A DNA stretch of 64,000 nucleotides, from positions 42,630,902 to 42,694,901 of the forward strand of contig NC_057718.1 in assembly GCF_004010195.1 (NCBI RefSeq), in the 5' to 3' direction. Positions 13,695 through 50,700 of this stretch are shown piece after piece. The notes under the pieces are model-generated. The model worked only from the letters and a program-made list of their open reading frames with translations. It did not search any database and had not been told where the DNA came from. The position numbers were made by a program, and so were the translations under genes. The stretch's first letter is position 1. Every line of letters starts with the position of its first letter. Origin of the DNA: Chiloscyllium plagiosum. Taxonomy: Eukaryota.

Positions 13695-15521
13695 GCGAAA
13701 GTGAGGTCTGCGGATGCTGGAGATTAGAGTCAAAGAGCACAGCAGGTCAGGCAGCATCCGAGGAGCAGGAGAATCGACGTTTTGGGCAAAAGCCCTTCAT
13801 CAGGAATGAGGCTGAGCGCCGAGGCAGTGGTGAGATAAATGGGAAGGGGATGGGGCTGTGGGGAAGGTAACTGAGCGTGTGATAGGTAGATGGAGGTGGG
13901 GGTAATGGTGTTAGATCAGAGACAAGGATGGAGCAGATAGGTGGGAAGGAAAATGGACAGGTCATGAGGTGGTGCAAGTTGGAAGGTTGGAACTGGGATA
14001 AGATAGGGGGAGGGGAAATGAGGAAACTGGTGAAATCCACATTGATGCCGTAGGGTTGGAGGGTCCTGAGGCAGAAGATGAGTTCTTCCTCCAGGCGTCG
14101 GGTGGTTAGGGAGTGGCGATGGAGGAGTCCCAGGACCTGCATGTCCCTGGTGGAGTGGGAGGGGGAGTTAAAGTGTTCGGCCATGGGGCGGTGGGTTTGG
14201 TTGGTACCGGTGTCCCGGAGATGTTCTCTGAAGTGCTCTGCAAGTAGACGTCCTATCTCACCAAAATAGAGGACACCGCATCGGGAGCAACGGATATAGT
14301 AAATGACGTGTGGAAGTGCAGGTGTAACTTGATGGATGTGGAGAAGGCTCCTTTGGGGCCTTGGACGTAGGTGAGGGGGGAGGTGTGGGGCAGACTTTGC
14401 AATTGCTACGGTGGCAGAGGAAGTTGCCAGGAGGGGAGGGTATGTTGGTGGGGGCGCGTGGACCTGACAAGGGAGTCGCAGAGGGAATGGTTTTTACGGA
14501 AAGTGGAGAGGGGTGGGGAGGGAAATATGTCATTGGTGATAGGTGACAGAATGGGAGGATGATGCGATGTATACAGAGGTTGGTAGGGTGGAAGGTGAGG
14601 TCCAGAGAGGTTCTGTCCTTGTTGCAGTTGGAGGGGTGGAGTTCGAGAGCAGAGGTGCGGGTAGTGGATGAGATGCAGTGGGGGGGCATCATTAACCAAG
14701 TGGGTGGGGAAATTGCGGTCTTTAAAGAAGGAGGCCATCTGGTGTGTTCTGTGGTGGAACTGGTCCTCCTGGGAGCAGATGTGGCAGAGGTGAAGGAATT
14801 GGGAATAAGGGATAGCATTTTTACAGAAGGCAGAGTGGGAGAAGGTGTAATCTAGTTTGCTGTGGGAGTTGGTGGGTTTGTAGAAAATATCAGTGTAGAG
14901 TCAGTCACCATTGATAGAGATGAAGAGGTCCAGGAAGGGGAGGGAAGTGTCTGAGATGGTCCAGGTCAACTAAAGGTCAGGGTGGAATGTATTGGTGAAG
15001 TTGATGAACTGTTCACCCTCCTCATAGAAGCACGAGGTAGCGCCGATACAGTCGTCAATGTAGTGGAAGAAAAGGTGGGGAGTAGTGCTGGTGTAACTGC
15101 AGAAGATGGACTGTTCCACGTACCCGACAAAGAGACTGGCATAGCTGGGGTCCATGGCTACCCCTTTCATCTGGAGGAAGTGGAAGGATTCAAAGGAGAA
15201 ATTATTGAGGGTGAGGGCCAGTTCAGCCAAACGATTGTGTGTGTCAGTGGAAGGATACGAGTGGGGTCATCAGGTGAGGAAGAAATAGAGGGCTTGGAGG
15301 CCCTTGTCATGGCAGATTCATGGCGGAAGAGTTCATCAGCTTCTTCCTTTCGCACTCTCGACAACCCCAATCCCCCCCAGTCGCAGCCCCACCACCCTCC
15401 CATTTATCTCACCTTGGCTCACAGCCTCATCCATGATGAAGGGCTTTTGCCCAAAACATCGATTTACCTGCTCCTCGGATGCTGCCTGACTTGCTGTGCT
15501 TTTCCAGCACCACACTCTTGA
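13695..15521 (-). mobile_element. Penelope-like element (Neptune-type): RT, Cys-rich linker and GIY-YIG, 5'-truncated, ending in an inverted pLTR copy; 15-bp TSD
   Basis: RT motifs QMKGVAM and FFHYIDDC (14970-15230), linker CHRSNCKVC, and GIY-YIG remnant (AEHFNS...RRLEEELIF). 15390-15521 is an inverted copy of ~13730-13860. TSD ctgtatt(a/t)gaaagag at 13680-13694 and 15522-15536. Confidence 0.88.
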
Positions 15522-16548
15522 CTGTATTTGAAAGAGTCTCAAGATTGTGACTGGGACTGCACTCAGACATAGCGGGAAGGAAAGGAAGATTTTCTGAGGG
15601 CACGTGAGTGGCACAGGGGATATTTCATTGTAAGTACTTTCTCTGAATAGTCCATATGTTTCACTTTTCAACACCAATGGGAGGAAATGTAATTTTAGTC
15701 TCAATTACAAGACTGAAGATACTAGCCATCCTTGGCACGGCATGATGTTTTATGGTCCAAGCTATGAAGTGAGCAGCTTAATAGCCACATGCAAGCTATG
15801 GGACATTGGAAAGTGATTGTGGCTTTGGCAAGTAAAATTTCCAGACCCCAAACCAATGCTTTTGCCTCTCAGCATAAGGTTCATGTACCGTACTTTATGG
15901 TCACAGATATCTTTCACCTGTACACTGTCTCTTTCATGCTGTTTTTTTATTTCAAAAATATACTTTATTCATAAAATATTTTGATGGTCTCTACAGTTGG
16001 TCACCTGTCTCTTTCATGCTGTTTTTTTTATTTCAAAAATATACTTTATTCATAAAATATTTTGATGGTCTCTACAGTTGGTCATGCCATACATACACAA
16101 ACATTCCATTTCTTTGCATACAGAGATCAGAATTTATCATTTGTATGTACAGGTCTGTACGTTTATCAATCATATATCCATATATTTAGCTGAGGCGTCA
16201 GCAGAGCCCAAATGACTGCGTGGGCCCCCTGTTCTTCTTAGGCAGGCAGATGTTACATGGTGGTCTTTCCCCACTTCGCCATGGCGGCAGCTACCCCAAG
16301 CTTCAGCGTATCCTTCAGCACGTGGTCCTGGACCTTGGAATGTGCCAGTCTGCAACACTCAGTCGGGGTCAACTCCTTCAACTGGAAGATCAACAAACAT
16401 TCCATTTCTTTGCATATAGAGATCAGAATTTATCATTTGTATATACAAGTCTGTACATTTATCAATCACATATCCATATATTTAGCTGAGGTGTCAGCAG
16501 AGCCCAACTGACTGCGTGGGCCCCCTGTTCTTCTTAGGCAGGCAGATG

Positions 16549-19500
16549 TTACATGGTGGTCTTTCCCCACTTCGCCATGGCGGCAGCTACCCCAAGCTTC
16601 AGCGTATCCTTCAGCACGTGGTCCTGGACCTTGGAATGTGCCAGTCTGCAACACTCAGTCGGGGTCAACTCCTTCAACTGGAAGATCAACAGGTTTTGGA
16701 CCGGTACCAGAGAGCATCCTTCACCGAGTTGATGATCTTCCAGGCACAGTTGATGTTCGTCTCAATGTGCGTCCTGGAGAACAGGCCGTAGAGCACGGAG
16801 TCCCACGTCATGGCGCTGCCCGGGACGAACCTTGACAAACACCACTGCATTCCTCTCCAGACTTCCTCTTCATAGGCACATTCCAGAAGGAGATGTGTGA
16901 CGGTCTCGTCCCACCCGCAGCCCCTTCGAGGGCAGCATGCGGTGCGGCTTGAGAGTCTAGGCGTGCATAAAGGATCTCACAGGCAGAGCCCTTCTCACCA
17001 CCAGCCAAGCCATGTCTTGGTTCTTGTTGGAAAGTTCTGGCGATGAGGCATTCTGCCAAATGACTTTGATAGTCTGCTCAGGGAACCGCTCGATAGGATC
17101 CGCCCTCTCCTTTTCCCGAAGGGTCTCAAGGACACTACGTACTGACCACTTCCTGATGGACTTGTGGTCAAAGGTGTTTCTCTTCATAAACGTCTCCACG
17201 AAGGACGGGTGATATGGAACGGTCCAACTACTCGGAGCGTTCCGCGGCAGCGAGGCCAGGCCCATCCTTCGCAACACCGGGGACAGGTAGAACCTCAGTA
17301 TGTAGTGACACTTGATGTTTGCGTACCAGGGATCCACGCACTGCTTGATGCAGCCACACACAAAAGTGGCCATCAGGGTGAGGGTGGCATTGGGTGTATT
17401 TTTATCCCCGTTGCCCAGATCTTTATACATTGAGTCCCTTCGGACCCGGTCCATCTTTGACCTCCATATAAACTGGAAGATGGCCCGGGTGACTGCAGCG
17501 GCGCAGGTTCTGGGAATAGGCCAGACCTGTGCCACGTATAACAGCAATGACAGTGCCTCACACTGATGACCAGGTTTTTTCCCACGATGGAGAGTGACCG
17601 TTGCTTCCATCTGCCCAGTTTCTGCCTCACTTTGCTGATACCCTCCTCCCAAGACTTTGTGCACGCCCCAGCCCCCCCCGAACCAAATACCCAGCCCCTT
17701 CAGGTGGTCGGTCCTGACGGTGAAGGGGATCGAGGATTGGTTGGCCCAGTTCCTGAAGAGCATGGCCTCGCTCTTGCCTCAGTTTACCTTGGCCCCCGAG
17801 GCCCGTTCGAACTGGTCACATATGCACATGAGTCTGTGCACGGACAGCAGCTCCGAGCAGAAAATGGCGACATCATTCATGTACAGGAAGGCCTTAACCT
17901 GCAGGCCTCCACTGCCAGGATTAGTCACCCACTCAGGCTCGCATCCTTCCTGATGGACTCGGCAAATGGCTGTATGCAGCACACAAACAAGGCAGGAGAG
18001 AGAGGGCAGCCCTGCCTGACTCCAGATCTGACTGGGAAGCTAAGATTCCCACCCATTGATTGAGACTGCACTGACAATGTTGGTATAGAGCAGTCTGATC
18101 CAATTTCAGATTCCATCCCCAAAGCCCATTTTGGAGAGAACATCTCTCATATATGTATGTGATATCCTGTCAAAGGCTTTCTCCTGGTCCAGGATGATGA
18201 GGCAGGTGTCCAACCCTCTGTCCTGCATGTGGGCGATCGTATCCCTGAGAAGTGCGAGACTCTCAGCGATCTTCCTGCCCGGTACAGCACAGGTTTGGTC
18301 AGGGTGATTCACCGACCCCAGAGCAGACCTGACCGGGTTGGCGATAACCTATGAAAGAGTTTTGTAATCCGCATTCAGTAGTGAGATTGGTCTCCAATTT
18401 CTGAGTTCCTCCCTCTCCCCCTTCCACTTGTGGATGAGGGTGATGATGCCTTTCCTCATGGATTCACTCATGGTACCTGCCCGAAGCATACTGACATACA
18501 CCACCAACAGGTCCTGGCCAATCAAGTCCCACAGAGCAGAATAGAGCTCGACCGGTAAGCCGTCGCTTCCGGGAGTTTTATTCTTTTCGAAGGACGCGAG
18601 GTCCTTGGTCAGCTCGTCCAGAGATAGCGGCTGGTCCAGCCTCTCCCGTGTTCTGTTGTCTAAGACCTCCGTGGTAGAGGACAGGAATGACTGGGAGGTT
18701 GGCTTTGCATAATACAGACTGGCTTAGAAGGATTTGCAGATCCTCATGACGTTAACCTGAGATGACGTTATCGAGCCATCTTCTTCCTTCAGGCTGCTGA
18801 GCACGGAACTCTCTTCGTGCATCTTCTGGAAGAAGAAACGTGAGCATGTTGCTCCACCAAGTGGACCCTGGACCGGAAGATTATCTTGGAGGCCTCCAAG
18901 GCAAAGAGCGAGGCTTGCTGGCATCGACCCCCATTGTCTGCAGCAGGAGCAGGTCCTGCATATTTTCCTGGAGCTGGGACAGTTTTCCCCGCCTCTCTCA
19001 TGCCTCCTGATGCTGAAGACGTCGTGCAGCTTGGCATCTTTTACCATTTCCATCAGGGCTCTGGATGTGGCGTCCAGCTTACTATCCCCCTTGCCGGACT
19101 GTCCATCTGCATCAATGAAACAGTTGAAGTCTCCGGCCAGAATGACCGGCCTGGACGTAGCCAGCAACAGTGGAAGCTGCTGCAGGACGGCCAAACGTTC
19201 ATCTCACCCACTGGGGCGTATACATTAATCAGTCTCAGGGGAGCATTCCTGTACATGACGTCGGTGACAAGGAGGCGCCTGCCCACCACCACCTTAACCT
19301 CGGAGATGGTGAAGTTGCCTCCTCGCAACAGGATACCCAGGCTGGATGCACGGCTATTGTTGCCCCGCAACCAAACTGACAGCCCATGGGCCCACAAGCT
19401 CGACCATCTCCTGTAGCTGCTGAGGTGTGGTATCCCACACTCCTGCAGAAACAGGATGTCGGCTTTAATGTTGGCCAGGAAGGCCATTGTAGAAACACAT

Positions 19501-19550
19501 CGCGTAGCCGATTTGATGCTACGCACATTGCTGGCAATTTTTATCCCCAT
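16549..19550 (-). pseudogene. Tx1 ORF2 (endonuclease-reverse transcriptase), disrupted by frameshifts and deletions
   Basis: ATG at 19550 (MGIKIAS...). ORF pieces 19053-19559, 18724-19194, 18106-18312, 17925-18143, 17779-17982 and 16957-17763. Stop TAA at 16549-16551. Confidence 0.88.
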
Positions 19551-19568
19551 TTTTAACAATTTACGAGG

Positions 19569-21006
19569 TTACCAGTGTCTATTTTGCTGCTGGTCTTGCC
19601 TCTCTGGGGTAGCTATGTGCATCCCTGTGATGACGGCAAACTGCTGGACCTTCCCAGGGCTGAGGTAGCTGTCCGGCTCCACGCTGGGGCCATTTCCCCG
19701 CTCTGGTGTCTTCAGGTCGGGCGCAGGGTCCGCATAGTCCAGTTCTCTGTCCGACAGCGGGAATGTCACAGGACCACTGCTCCCAGTTACCTGGAGCTGT
19801 GTGGCGGTGGGTACCTCGTGGTTCTCCCCGGATGGGGGGAGGTCTTTACCCATCCCCTCAGAGGGATCATCTTTTCCTGTTTGGGTGGTGCTGCCCTCCT
19901 TTTTCCCCGCGGTACTCTGTCTCTTCCTCTGGTGACGACCCTCCTTACCATCCGAAGAGCTGCCTGTATCCTTGTGTAGGTGTCATTTCCCCCTTTTCCT
20001 GGGTGGCTTTGGGGGACTGGCGAGGTTTCCTCTTCCTGATTTTGACAGTAATCCAATCCTCTGCCTCCTTTGTTCCCTCCTCTTCCATTTCCTCCGTCTG
20101 TCTTGAAGGAGCTTAGATAGACTGCTGCGCCTCCCTGCTGTCTGCCGTCTGCTGCGTTCCAGCCTGCCCTTCCTTCTGGGCGCCACCATACACCGTTCCC
20201 ATGCTGTTTTGTGGTACCTTGCTGATCTTATGCAGTCCATGGCTCGTGCTGCCACCTCCGGCCATCTGTGCAAAGGTGGCGGCCCCTCGTCTTGGGCAGG
20301 TCTTGTACATGTGGCCTGCCTCTCCGCACAGATTACAGTTCTTGGCCTATTTACATTCCTTGGTCAGGTGGCTTTCCTGCTTGCAGTTTCGACAGACCTT
20401 ACAATCTGCCGCCATGTGGCCTGACCTCCCGCAGGTTCGGCACACTTTCGGCTGCCCTGTGTTTGTCAGGTAACCTCTGCTTCCTCCGATGGCAAAGCTG
20501 GAGGGTGGGTGGAGGATGTTCCCACTGGCATCGACCCTCAGGGTTACCCTGACCTCCTGCTTGCTGGTCCAGAACCCGAAAGGATCGACCACACCTGTGC
20601 TTTCTCCCTCGACCTGGACATATCTTCTCAGGAAGGTCAGGACATCCATTGCTGGGACATGGGTGTTGTACGTATGGATTGTAACAACCCGACCCCTCTG
20701 CGCAGGAAGCACACACAATGGGACTGCTGACAAGATGGAGAACAGAGGTTCCCCTTCCTTCTCCTTGAAGACCTTCAGGAGTTGTTTGCAATTCTTCACA
20801 CTCCTGAAGGTCACATCGAAATAGTCTGCCACAGGGAAATCCTGTAGGCAGTACACGTTCGCTGCTTCAAAGCCGCAGCACTCCAGCAAAATCTTCTTGA
20901 CAAACACCGTCCGATCAACCGGTGTACGCTCATCCACCTTCTTCACAGTCACCCTGACTGTGTTGCGAATGCCCTGGCCTGGGCTGTGAGCGGCTGCTGA
21001 GGCCAT
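19569..21006 (-). pseudogene. Tx1 ORF1 (RRM-like region plus three zinc knuckles), ZCCHC3-like
   Basis: ORF 20347-21069 reads ...VDPFGFWTS...HPPSSFAIGGSRGY...GQPKVCRTCGRSGHMAADCKVCRNCKQESHLTKEC. After an in-frame TAG it continues CNLCGEAGHMYKTCPR. Confidence 0.85.
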
Positions 21007-21332
21007 AGCTCTGAGGTTGGCTGGTACCTGAATTGGCGTTAGGCCGAAGCCATCATAAAGATCCACCAAGAGCAGGTCAGCACAACCAAACGAACCTCCA
21101 ACGTCCTATCATGGGCTGGTACCTGAATTGGCGTTAGGCCGAAGCCAGCATAAAGATCCACCAAGAGCAGGTCAGCACAACCAAACGAACCTCCAACGTC
21201 CTATCATGATCCAGCTATGATCTCCAGCAGCTCCGACGACTCGCAACACGACCCCCGTGGTATCTCCCCTGCCAGCACACATCCGCTGCGTTGAACCTGC
21301 AGCACTCGAGCAGAATCTCTTCCTCTGGTCCT

Positions 21333-21367
21333 CAGAAACTATGCATATTCCGAGCCAAAAGGCTGAG
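21333..21367 (-). ncRNA. Diverged U2 snRNA 5'-end-like sequence (U2 nt 8-42) at the Tx1 5' terminus; not a functional U2 gene
   Basis: Minus strand ctcagccttttggctcggaatatgcatagtttctg versus vertebrate U2 CTCGGCCTTTTGGCTAAGATCAAGTGTAGTATCTG (recalled): 26/35 ungapped identities. Confidence 0.7.
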
Positions 21368-21854
21368 TCTTCCCCCCGAAATAAATTCATTCACGGGCTG
21401 TGGGCATCACTGGCTAGGCCAGCATTTTCATTATACCAAAGTGGAGCCCCCTCCCTCAAAGACTGAAGGATTTATTCTGCTCCATACAAGTGTAGTGACA
21501 GCCATTTTCATCTCCATTGAGAACTTGCGATTTGGATGACAATGGAAAGAAACAGTGGTTGTATTTATTGAGTGAGGCATAGACTTGGTCTCTTCGTTTA
21601 GGTGACCCCACCCTCCCAAATTTTCATATTCCCTTCTTGGTTGCTGTCCTGTCACTCCAGCTTTCCCCACTTACCCACCCAACCGCATTTATTTAACTGT
21701 TAATCCACTTCAACCTCAGATCCTCAGGCACACTGCTTCAACATGCCAGGCATAGCAGTGCACTATCACCCCTACAAAACCAGGGTTGGGAGTGAAGGTA
21801 ACTATCAATGATCCACCTCACCACCTGCATTGCCCCTTCAATTGGAAATTAGGA

Positions 21855-22760
21855 TCAAGGTTTGTGTAATTATTTGTAGCTTGGGTGCCAGTTGTCGTAG
21901 TTGTGGGTATGTTTGCCAAGATGGGAAGTTGATTTGCAGATGTTTCATTCCCTCTCGAGGTGACATTTTCAGTGCTTTGGGGCCTCTTGTGAAGCACTGC
22001 TGTACTGTGTCCTCTGTAATTTATTTGGTTCCATTCCTGCTGCTTCCGGTTGCTGGTTCCAGTTGTTCGTTGTACTGGTCTGTATATTGGGTCTAAGTCT
22101 ATATGCTTGTTGATGGAGTTTGTGGATGAGTACCATGCTTCTAGGAATTCTTTGGCTGTCCTCTGTTTAGCTTGTCCTATGATCATTGTGTTGTCCGAGC
22201 TCAATTTGTGGTCCCAGTCATCTGTTTGTATGGCTACTAGGGACAGCTGGTCATGGTGTTTAGTGGCTAGTTGGTGTTCATGGTTCCAGATTGTTAGTTG
22301 TCTGCCTGTTTGCCTGATACATTGTTTCGAGCAATCTTTGCATGGAATCCTGTAAATTACATTAGTCTTGCACATGTTGGGTGTAGGGTCTTTTGTCCTG
22401 GTGAGTTGCTGTCTGAACGTGCCTGTTAGTTTATGGGCTGTCATGAGTCCCAGTGGTCGAAGATGTCTGGTTGTTAGTTCCAAGACGTTATTTTTGGAAG
22501 GTAGCATGGCTAGTGAGTTAGGTCATGGAGGTCCTCGTCATGCTGTTTGTCTGTTAGGCATCTGCAGATGAAGTTCCTGGAATATCCGTTCTTGGCAAAA
22601 ACTCTGTAGAGGTGTTCCTCTTCCCTTTGCAGGTCGGGTGTGCTGCTTTGCATTGTAGCCCTTTTGAGTAGGGTCCTAATGCAACGTCTCTTGTATGCGT
22701 TTGGGTGGTTGCTGTTGTAATTCAGGATCTGGTTGGTGTGTGTGTGACTTTCCAGTACAC
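21855..22760 (-). mobile_element. Penelope-like element (Penelope/Poseidon-type), RT C-terminus plus GIY-YIG
   Basis: NVIYRIPCKDCSKQCIRQTGRQL...HEHQLATK (ORF 21818-22507) and upstream KVTHTNQILNYNSNHPNAYKRRCIRTLLKRA. Degenerate hammerhead-like core at 21939-21972. Confidence 0.85.
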
Positions 22761-22856
22761 ATTCCTGATAAAGGACTTATGCCCAAAACATCGATTCTCC
22801 TGCTCCTCAAATGCTGCCTGACTTGCTGGGCTTTTCCGGCACCACACTGTTTGACT
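22761..22856 (+). mobile_element. Single pLTR arm of the Neptune-type PLE family
   Basis: cctgataaaggacttatgcccaaaacatcgattctcctgctcctc...gctgcctgac closely matches 15430-15521 and 61187-61270. Confidence 0.8.
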
Positions 22857-23024
22857 GCAGGACAACCCAGCCATCTATTTGGCTATTTGAAATTATTGAC
22901 GTTTGTATGAACGTTTGGATATTTCAAAAGTCTTCATGGACTCTGTTGAGTAGGGTTTGTTTATTCTTGTGTCCTCAGAATGTCTGTTTGATTGCTTGGT
23001 TTTCTTCTCATCAACAACGTTAGA

Positions 23025-47769: not shown

Positions 47770-50700
47770 ACATAGAACATTACAGCGCAGTACAGGCTTC
47801 GGCCTCAATGTTGTGCCAACCTGTGAAACCAATCTGAAGCCTATTTAACATACACAATTTCATTTTCGTCCATATGACTATCCAATGGCTATTTAAATGC
47901 CCTTAAAGTTAATGAGTCTACTACTGTTGCAGGCAGTGCATTCCAAGCCCCTACTACTCTCTGAGTAAAGAAACTATCTCTGACATATGTCCTATATCTA
48001 TTACCCCTCAATTTAAAGCTATGCCCCCTCATGCTAGCGATCGCCATCTGAGGAAAAAGGCTCTCACTATCCATCCTATCTAACCCTCTGATTATCTTGT
48101 ATGTCTCAATTAAGTCACCTCTTAATCTTCTCTCCAAGGAAAACAGCCTCAAGTCCCTTAGCCATTCCCTGTAAGACCTTCCCTCCATACCAGACAACAT
48201 CTTAGTAAATCTCCTCTGAACCCTTTCCAATGCTTCCTCATCCTTCCTATAATGAGGTGACCAAAACTGTACACAATACTCCAAGTGCGGCTGCACCAGA
48301 GTTCTGTACATCTGCAGCATGATCTCATGGTTTTGAAACTCAATCCCTCTGATAATAAAAGCTAACACCCCATATGCCTTCTTAACAACCCTATCAACCT
48401 GGGTAGCAACTTTGAGGGGTCTGTGTACCTGGACACCGAGATATCTCTGCTCATCTACACTACTAAGAATTTTACCATTAGCCCAGTACTCTTTATTCCT
48501 GTGTTTCTTCCAAAGTAAATCACCTCGCACTTTTCTGCAGTAAACTTCATTTGCCACCTCTCAGCCCAGCTCTGCAACTTATCTATGTAACCCTGTAACC
48601 TATAACATCCTTCTGCACTATCGACAACTTTACCAACCCTGGTGTCATCCACAAATTTACTAACCCATCCTTCTACGCCCTCATCCAGGTTATTTATAAA
48701 AATGACAAGCAGCAGTGGACCTAAAACAGATCCTTGCAGTACACCACCGTAACTGAACTCCAGAATGAACTTTTCCCATCAACCACCACCCTCTATCTTC
48801 ATTCAGCTAGCCAATTTCTGATCCAAACCGCTAAATCACCCTCAATCCCATGCCACCATATTTTATGCAATCACCTACTGTGGGACTTTTATCAAACGCC
48901 TCACTGAAATCCATAAATATCACATCAACCGCTTTACCCTCATCCACCTGTTTGGTCACCATCTCAAAGAACACAGTAAGGTTTGAGAGGCACAACCTAC
49001 CCTTCTCAAAACCGTGTTGACTATCCCTAATAAATTATTCATTTCTAGATGATTGTAAATCCTATCTCTTATAACCTTTTCCAACACTTTACCCACAACT
49101 GAAGTAAGGCTCACTGGTCTGTAATTACCAGGATTGTTTCTACTCCCCCTCTTGAACAAGAGAATAACATTTGCTATCCTCCAGTCTTCTGGCACTATTC
49201 CTGTAGACAATGACGGCATAAAGATCAAAGCCAAAGGCTTGACAATCTTCTCTCTGGCTTTCCAGAGAATCCTAGAATAAATCTCATCCGGCCCAAGGTA
49301 GTTATCTGTTTTTACACTTTGGGGAAATACTGACACTTCCTCCTTGTGAACCTCAATCCTATCCAGTCTACTAGCTTGTATCTCAGTATTCTCCTCAACA
49401 ACATTGTCTTTTTCCAGTGTGAATACAGATGAAAGATATTCATTTAGTGCTTCCTCTATCTCCTCTGATTCCACGCACAACTTCCCACTACTATCCTTGA
49501 TTGGCCCTAATTTTATTCTAGTCATTCTTTTATTCCTGATACACCTATAGAAAGTTTTAGGGTTTTCCTTGATCCTGTCTGCCAGTGACTTATCATTTAC
49601 TCTCCTGGCTCTTCTTAACTCTTTCTTTAGGCCTTCCCTGGCTAACTTGTAACTCTCAAGTGCCCTAGCTGAGCCTTCACATCTCATTCTAACATAAGCC
49701 TTCTTCCTCCTCTTGACAAGAGATTCAACTTCTTTAGTAAACCACAGCTCCAGCGCTGGACAACGTTCTCCCTGTCTGACAGGTACATACTTATCAAGTA
49801 CCCACAGTAGTTGTTCCTTGAATAAGCTCCACATTTCAATTGTGCCCATCCCCTGCAGTTTCCTTCCCCATCCTATGCATCCTAAATCTTGGCTAATGGC
49901 ATCGTAATTGCCTTTTCCCCAGCTATAACTCTTGCCCTGTGGTATATACCTATTCCTTTCCATCACTAAAGTAAACATAACTGAATTGTGGCCACTATCA
50001 CCAAAGTGCTCACCAACCTCCAAGTCTAACACCTGGCCGGGTTCATTACCCAGTACCAAAATTAATGTGGCCTTACACTTTGTTGGCCTGCCTACATGCT
50101 GATAGGAAATCCTCCTGCACACATCGGACCATCTAAATTGCTTGAACTATAGCATTCCAAGTCAATATTTGGAAAGTTAAAGTTCCCCTGAACAGCTACA
50201 CTGCACCCAGCCCCCCGCCAGCTTTTGCCATTTTCTGTGTTATTACTGAAACATCTAGATCCCGGAATCTGCAACAACCATTCCTTTCCCTGCTCTACCC
50301 ATGTCTCCGAATGGCCACAACATGAAAATTCCAGGTACCACCCTCCCTCCTGCACCATCCCTGTAGCCACGTGTTCAATTCTTCTCCCAATTCCTCACCT
50401 CACTAGCACGTGGCACGGGCAACAAATCAGAGATAACAACTCTCAGTTTGTCCAAGCTCTCAGCTTCCACCCTAGCTCCCTGAACTTCTGCCTTAAATCC
50501 ACATCTCTTTTCTTACCTATGTCATTGGTCCCTATGTGGACCACGACTTGGGGCTGCTCCCCCTCCCCCTTAAGAATCTTGAAAACACAATCCGAGACAT
50601 TGCGAACCCTGGCACATAGGAGGCAACACACCAACCATGAGTGTGTCTCATTCCCACACAACCTCTTATCTGTCCCCTAACTATGGAATCCTCAATGACA

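Follow-up and report, generated by a model that had tools for sequence, protein, structure and literature searches.

A dispersed LINE, apparently of the Keno lineage, with exchangeable snRNA-derived 5' heads in a shark genome

Keno is a Tx1 LINE that is specific for U2 snRNA genes (Kojima and Fujiwara 2004, cited in PMC4494074, PMC4640811, and PMC6136364). As described in PMC4494074 (Kojima 2015), crocodilian Tx1-Mar LINEs cluster with Keno, and four Tx1 families carry heads derived from snRNAs: U2 in Tx1-11_Crp and U1 in Tx1-2_Crp, Tx1-2B_Crp, and Tx1-4_AMi. The same account reports recurrent addition of heads to SINEU elements and treats the transcription of snRNA-headed retroelements as an open question, snRNA genes being without a known internal promoter. 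A literature search, with Repbase entries outside its scope, listed no paper on snRNA-headed Tx1 elements of sharks or on variants of U2 in these fishes. Here we describe a shark LINE that carries such heads. The surprise is limited, since the copy in the window is dead and U2-headed relatives of Keno are known.

The window copy and its U2-derived head

The window is a stretch of 64,000 nucleotides on contig C9 of the genome searched (3.56 Gb). It contains a dead copy of a Tx1 LINE, apparently of the Keno lineage, that runs from 21367 to 16022 on the minus strand (Table 1).

Table 1. Parts of the LINE copy and its flanks, in window positions
Feature	Position	Strand	Evidence
5' flank gggggg-aaga, outside the element	21368..21377	-	Not common to other copies, which have U2 nt 1-7 there
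U2-derived head, nt 8-42, vU2-B type; nt 1-7 missing in this copy	21333..21367	-	32/35 identical to vU2-B, 26/35 to canonical U2
5' UTR piece with homology to the insertion hotspot in the element's ORF1 (20849-20898)	21273..21321	-	39/50 columns identical
Embedded U1 snRNA nt 9-26	21258..21275	-	18/18 identical to the genome's U1 gene L257
5' UTR core, present with every head type; carries a 95-nt tandem duplication here	21019..21208	-	
ORF1, decayed; premature stop near 20347; lower end approximate	19560..21006	-	Pfam PF23057, PF23058, PF00098
ORF1 stretch ending in the self-insertion hotspot	20849..20898	-	48 A-tails run directly into the hotspot, control 0
ORF2: AP-endonuclease-type region, RT, zinc-binding region	16549..19550	-	tblastn with relative P0002, blastn against copy L060
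3' UTR, polyadenylation-type signal, A-tail	16022..16548	-	
81-nt tandem duplication of tail and flank	15925..16084	-	

The domains found in ORF1 by Pfam are two RNA-binding domains of the ZCCHC3 type and a zinc knuckle. ORF2 is interrupted by stop codons and frameshifts and has lost ~350 nt in a deletion; its RVT_1 and zf-RVT domains were found with Pfam in sister copies. The 3' part carries a 296-nt duplication (16097-16691), and the 95-nt duplication in the UTR was absent from the other copies aligned. The UTR is layered, with the vU2-B head followed by the ORF1-hotspot piece, U1 nt 9-26, and the shared core. Against the ORF1 hotspot, the 49-nt UTR piece scored 53 (maximum of 28 in 500 shuffles). 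The U1 segment is likely the relic of an earlier head, and U1-headed sister copies exist in the genome. As the preliminary description had stated, no U2 sequence follows the A-tail, and the tail and flank at 15925..16084 have no clear target-site duplication. Elsewhere in the window, 13700-15540, 21800-22900, and 47900-50150 hold decayed pieces of what we take to be other retroelements and tRNA-type SINEs, with no Pfam hit, and 49058-49636 weakly matches the RT relative P0002.

The preliminary description had proposed that the element begins with a captured and diverged piece of U2. The ungapped match on which this rested was reproduced: the 35 positions, on the minus strand, correspond to nt 8-42 of the canonical U2 gene L031 (190.6 bits with Rfam RF00004), and the 26 identities compare with 21 at the next best place in the window and a maximum of 23 in 200 shuffled queries. 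The proposed Rfam check, run on 21000-21800, did not detect U2, because a 35-nt piece alone is too short. This outcome, together with the lack of a clear target-site duplication, is what a chance match or a flank such as a U2 pseudogene target might leave, but that explanation is exceedingly improbable and is refuted by the other copies. Matches of the 5' region in the genome began at the head or a few bases from it (40 of 984 candidates scored). A pattern spanning the junction of head and body, with the diagnostic letters left free, had 90 exact matches in the genome and none in the control; all 90 were of the vU2-B type, though any letters were allowed there. The head is thus present in at least 90 copies at unrelated sites. 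We examined 52 distinct copies, most of them chosen with a head-containing query. The way these copies were chosen biases a comparison of head and body divergence, which was left out of account. U2 nt 1 was the start in 15 and nt 5 or earlier in 29, and upstream flanks were similar in 1 of 1,326 pairs. Target-site duplications of 9-21 nt enclosing the head were found in about 5 of 28 copies scanned. We concluded that the resemblance to U2 is genuine and that the head belongs with the element. The string gggggg-aaga, previously noted in front of the match, lies outside the element (Table 1).

The letters of the head point to a particular gene. The window head differs from the variant U2 gene vU2-B (L035) at G11A, T32C, and G33A, and the majority sequence of the 52 copies agrees with vU2-B at 41/42 positions. 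G11A, which had been taken for a compensatory change from G.U to A-U in stem-loop I, sits in a CpG, is present in 12 of the 52 copies, and is ascribed to CpG decay; T32C and G33A are present in one copy each. The alteration of the branch-point box noted earlier is therefore of two kinds: A38T is family-wide (49/52) and is vU2-B's own letter, whereas G33A is decay. Likewise, the copies are dispersed at mostly non-U2 loci, as had been predicted, but they do not share G11A, T32C, or G33A as a family. By these comparisons, the head was copied from vU2-B and did not diverge after capture.

Variant U2 genes and the exchange of heads

At least three variant U2 genes are present in the genome: vU2-B (L035:1501-1692), vU2-C (L033:1501-1692), and vU2-D (L034:1501-1691). 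The 300 nt upstream of each gene align with the corresponding region of canonical U2 (z of 8.8, 13.9, and 14.9, respectively), and the genes score 151-169 bits with the Rfam U2 model (151 bits for vU2-B). A motif 3' of them resembles the snRNA 3' box. Relative to canonical U2, vU2-B differs 6 times within nt 23-38, whereas its nt 1-22 are unchanged. The branch-point box is altered in two of the three genes.

The assembly contains one vU2-B gene. A 2,054-nt contig from one DNA run (run X6, record 4) reads from the gene into the promoter and on into the sequence downstream of vU2-B (L035:1200-2000), which suggests that vU2-B forms a tandem array of ~2-kb units represented once in the assembly; such an array, if real, could hide a source copy of the LINE. 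Two reads fell on vU2-B in about 2% of one RNA run and none in a second run, which speaks neither for nor against its expression. There are also vU2-B retrocopies (L076-L098), some of which run past the 3' end of the gene; 9 of the 15 scored are fused to a tRNA-type SINE, much like mammalian U6-L1 chimeras. Such retrocopies would imply germline expression of vU2-B. A set of vU2-D-like copies (L156, L157, L161-L163, L166, and L167) has a common, different upstream sequence in which no snRNA promoter match was seen; it is possibly a duplicated retrocopy.

Heads other than that of vU2-B were found with a head-blind pattern at the start of ORF1, which had 249 exact sites in the genome. Seventy of the first listed were read, giving 69 distinct upstream sequences. 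The most frequent head, beta (31/69), corresponds to nt 1-52 of canonical U2 but lacks 4 nt of the branch-point box. The alpha head, that of vU2-B, accounted for 22 and was partial in 2 more; this sample omitted seven alpha copies, so alpha is under-counted. One sequence had a vU2-D head and one a U1 head, 10 broke off within the UTR (one of these was moved by eye out of the U1 class), and 2 read as N. Further cases included an intact canonical U2 head on three beta bodies, U1 heads on six copies, and alpha bodies with heads of the vU2-C type (two) or vU2-D (one) at the same junction; single copies carried extra 5' extensions of U1 or vU2-D. Every head seen ends before the Sm site, and all U2 heads include stem-loop I. 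A head ending before the Sm site would leave an ordinary cap. We concluded that heads are exchangeable between vU2-B, vU2-C, vU2-D, canonical U2, and U1.

This exchange bears on the idea, raised in the preliminary description, that the hairpin was retained for a function. More generally, the head might be an autonomous 5' module under selection, acting as an internal promoter or as a stability or RNP hairpin, such that dispersed copies can themselves be sources. The beta head with its 4-nt deletion is common to more than one subfamily, and no full-length U2 with this deletion was found in the assembly (of 6 exceptions, none runs on into U2), which argues that this head was inherited through several source copies; the presence of stem-loop I in all U2 heads also agrees with a module. 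We nonetheless regard it as very unlikely. Heads are interchanged with one another and even with U1, the alpha head is undiverged from vU2-B, and the substitutions cited for the hairpin are decay, so nothing points to a retained function; moreover, as of PMC4494074, snRNA genes had no known internal promoter.

Insertion sites and copies inside snRNA genes

We determined what follows the tails of the family. At least 1,680 exact tails were found in the genome; 14 tails are followed by the octamer of the U2 site, and about 8 of those 14 by U2-like sequence; the tail patterns differ slightly between counts, so ratios are rough. The clearest case, L135, has a tail followed by vU2-B nt 38-205 at 98%, and resumption at U2 nt 38 is the Keno site as quoted in PMC6136364. 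Other octamer-site tails are followed by U2 nt 38/39-52 (two) or by nt 38-47 (four copies of one unit), and the remainder by 11 matching letters (one) or by sequence other than U2 (six). Among the aligned copies, all 3' flanks were non-U2 except that of L083. The flanks read had no common target apart from the element's own ORF1, where 48 tails run into the hotspot. This hotspot (20849-20898) loosely resembles the U2 target, and many copies are interrupted there. By the defining test for Keno, strict U2-gene specificity, the element fails, with ~8 U2-like junctions against at least 1,680 tails. No tail in the genome was followed by U1.

Counted from the gene side, promoter-bearing U2-type genes were nevertheless hit often, a strong enrichment. 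Among 12 loci with a promoter of the vU2-D type, 6 have a 5' part of U2 followed by the LINE and 2 an intact gene; another is interrupted at nt 93, and in the remaining 3 no U2 follows the promoter match. At 3 of 22 U1-promoter loci, a 5' piece of U1 is followed by the LINE. A complete case is L371, in which the promoter and vU2-D nt 1-38 are followed by an alpha element of 5.2 kb that is joined at the family junction, a tail, and vU2-D from nt 27. In this full-length copy, the host gene's own nt 1-38 occupies the same junction as the head in the dispersed family. At L372 and L354, too, the inserted element has U2 sequence on either side. The 3' flank begins at U2 nt 38 in L135, L136, L143, and the L140 group, and at nt 27, 41, or about 58 in other in-gene copies. 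A subfamily cutting U2 at nt 27 was considered and is not claimed, the nt-27 junction having been seen once, at one locus. We concluded that U2 targeting has been relaxed and not lost; the earlier claim of lost specificity was too strong. Intact U1 or vU2-D genes (L257, L258, L389, L391-L393, L396, L402, L359, and L360) also have LINE fragments a few hundred bases away, which suggests a regional preference for snRNA clusters.

We think it likely, with a probability of about 0.68, that the vU2-B head was acquired as source copies sit in U2-type genes and are read from the promoters of those genes, giving RNA from U2 nt 1. Source copies inside snRNA genes would be transcribed from the host's upstream promoter, and the transcript would run from U2 nt 1 to the polyadenylation signal of the element itself. 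For the alpha family, the source copy would have resided in a vU2-B gene absent from the assembly. Progeny, the endonuclease specificity having presumably relaxed, would land mostly elsewhere and be without a promoter; a copy landing in another snRNA gene would gain a new head. The layered UTR of the window copy (vU2-B, ORF1 piece, U1, and core) would be the product of several such rounds, among them insertion into the hotspot in its own ORF1. The fixed junctions, the starts at nt 1, the in-gene copies behind promoters, and the match of the head to a host paralog argue for transcription from host promoters. Other observations count against it: no source copy in vU2-B was found, the copies detected inside genes have decayed, and the U2 junctions vary (3' side at nt 27, 38, 41, and ~58). 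Promoters of vU2-B and vU2-C matched their own loci only, and no element lies behind either in the assembly. The vU2-D-headed copy left no detected progeny, its one match in the genome being itself.

Template switching to snRNAs is evident in the SINE-fused vU2-B retrocopies and the extra 5' extensions of single copies, so the founding junction itself could be a template switch. In the strong form of this alternative, a single switch from element RNA to abundant vU2-B RNA created the head, the founder used some other upstream promoter, and the insertions in U2 genes reflect residual targeting unrelated to propagation. In PMC4494074, SINEU heads are proposed to have arisen by template switching, and this alternative would need no source copy in vU2-B. 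It leaves unexplained, however, that dispersed progeny without common upstream sequence start at nt 1 and that an in-gene copy has host nt 1-38 exactly at the family junction, and we consider it unlikely. Under transcription from host promoters, the predicted intermediate is present: a full-length LINE in a promoter-bearing U2-type gene, joined to the 5' end of its host exactly as the family is to its head. The transcription question thereby becomes testable.

A broader scenario is more speculative, and we would rate it as rather improbable. A promoterless LINE lineage would hop between snRNA promoters (canonical U2, the three variants, and U1), taking host 5' ends as heads and scattering copies genome-wide; the variant U2 genes, which depart from canonical U2 in nt 23-38, a normally conserved stretch next to the insertion site, might have arisen or persisted as decoys or escape variants in this conflict.

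Relationship to Keno and other described elements

The RT was placed with the open RT stretch of copy L060 as the query for searches; its match to a horn-shark protein was 53%. The Keno reference was a metagenome locus, L269, which is fish Keno by its flanks: upstream sequence, U2 nt 1-26, the element, a tail, and U2 nt 38-191. Judged by this layout, which matches that of the in-gene copies of the shark element, L269 would likewise use an upstream promoter. In a quick tree of 185 rows, the shark element fell in a 36-row clade with L269 (SH-aLRT of 97). In a careful tree of 47 rows taken from the quick one, the element grouped with three proteins, two of them named amphibian (100/98), as sister to the clade holding L269; the joint 20-row clade had support of 91/96, its ultrafast bootstrap of 91 lying below 95. 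The trees comprise the query's nearest hits, with L269 as the one flank-verified Keno row and no Kibi, Koshi, or Tx1-Mar rows. The grouping with Keno expected in the preliminary description was thus recovered. The protein BAC82621 (P0028), presumably zebrafish Keno, was not used as evidence. Distant Tx1 relatives lie beside U2 or U1 genes at four metagenome loci (L272, L289, L294, and L297), and L289 starts with U2 nt 1-41.

The element has the features of the Tx1 clade: two ORFs, zinc knuckles in ORF1, an AP-type endonuclease, RT, and zinc-binding region in ORF2, and an A-tail. The start of ORF2 in the window copy aligns to the N terminus of P0002, which has PF03372; the decayed endonuclease piece of the window copy itself had no Pfam hit. 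On this sequence evidence, the element appears to belong to the Keno lineage and to work like Keno, without strict U2 specificity. It resembles Keno in being a Tx1 LINE with an AP-type endonuclease, in its RT clade with L269, in the resumption of U2 at nt 38 after some tails, and in the 5' piece of U2 in front. It differs in that it is not U2 specific, its junctions vary, and the 5' piece of U2 travels with dispersed copies.

The layered U1 and U2 pieces at the 5' end recall SINEU as described in PMC4494074. SINEU, however, is short and non-coding, whereas the shark element is about 5.5 kb long, with two ORFs, and is of the autonomous type. The weakening of U2-site specificity without its loss is shared with crocodilian Utopia, which, as described in PMC4640811, has a restriction-like endonuclease and forms a separate lineage.

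The closest likeness in heads is to Tx1-Mar. By the account in PMC4494074, these are Tx1 LINEs outside U2 genes that cluster with Keno and, in some families, carry U1- or U2-derived 5' ends, as the shark element does. Tx1-Mar prefers Mariner-N4_AMi or LTR elements (PMC4494074); the shark element, in contrast, has a hotspot in its own ORF1, continues to insert into promoter-bearing U2-type genes, and takes heads from variant U2 paralogs. U2-headed, Keno-related Tx1 LINEs outside U2 genes are therefore already known, in the form of Tx1-11_Crp (PMC4494074). What is new here is that whole elements are seen inside U2-type genes and that the snRNA heads are exchangeable and drawn from variant U2 genes.
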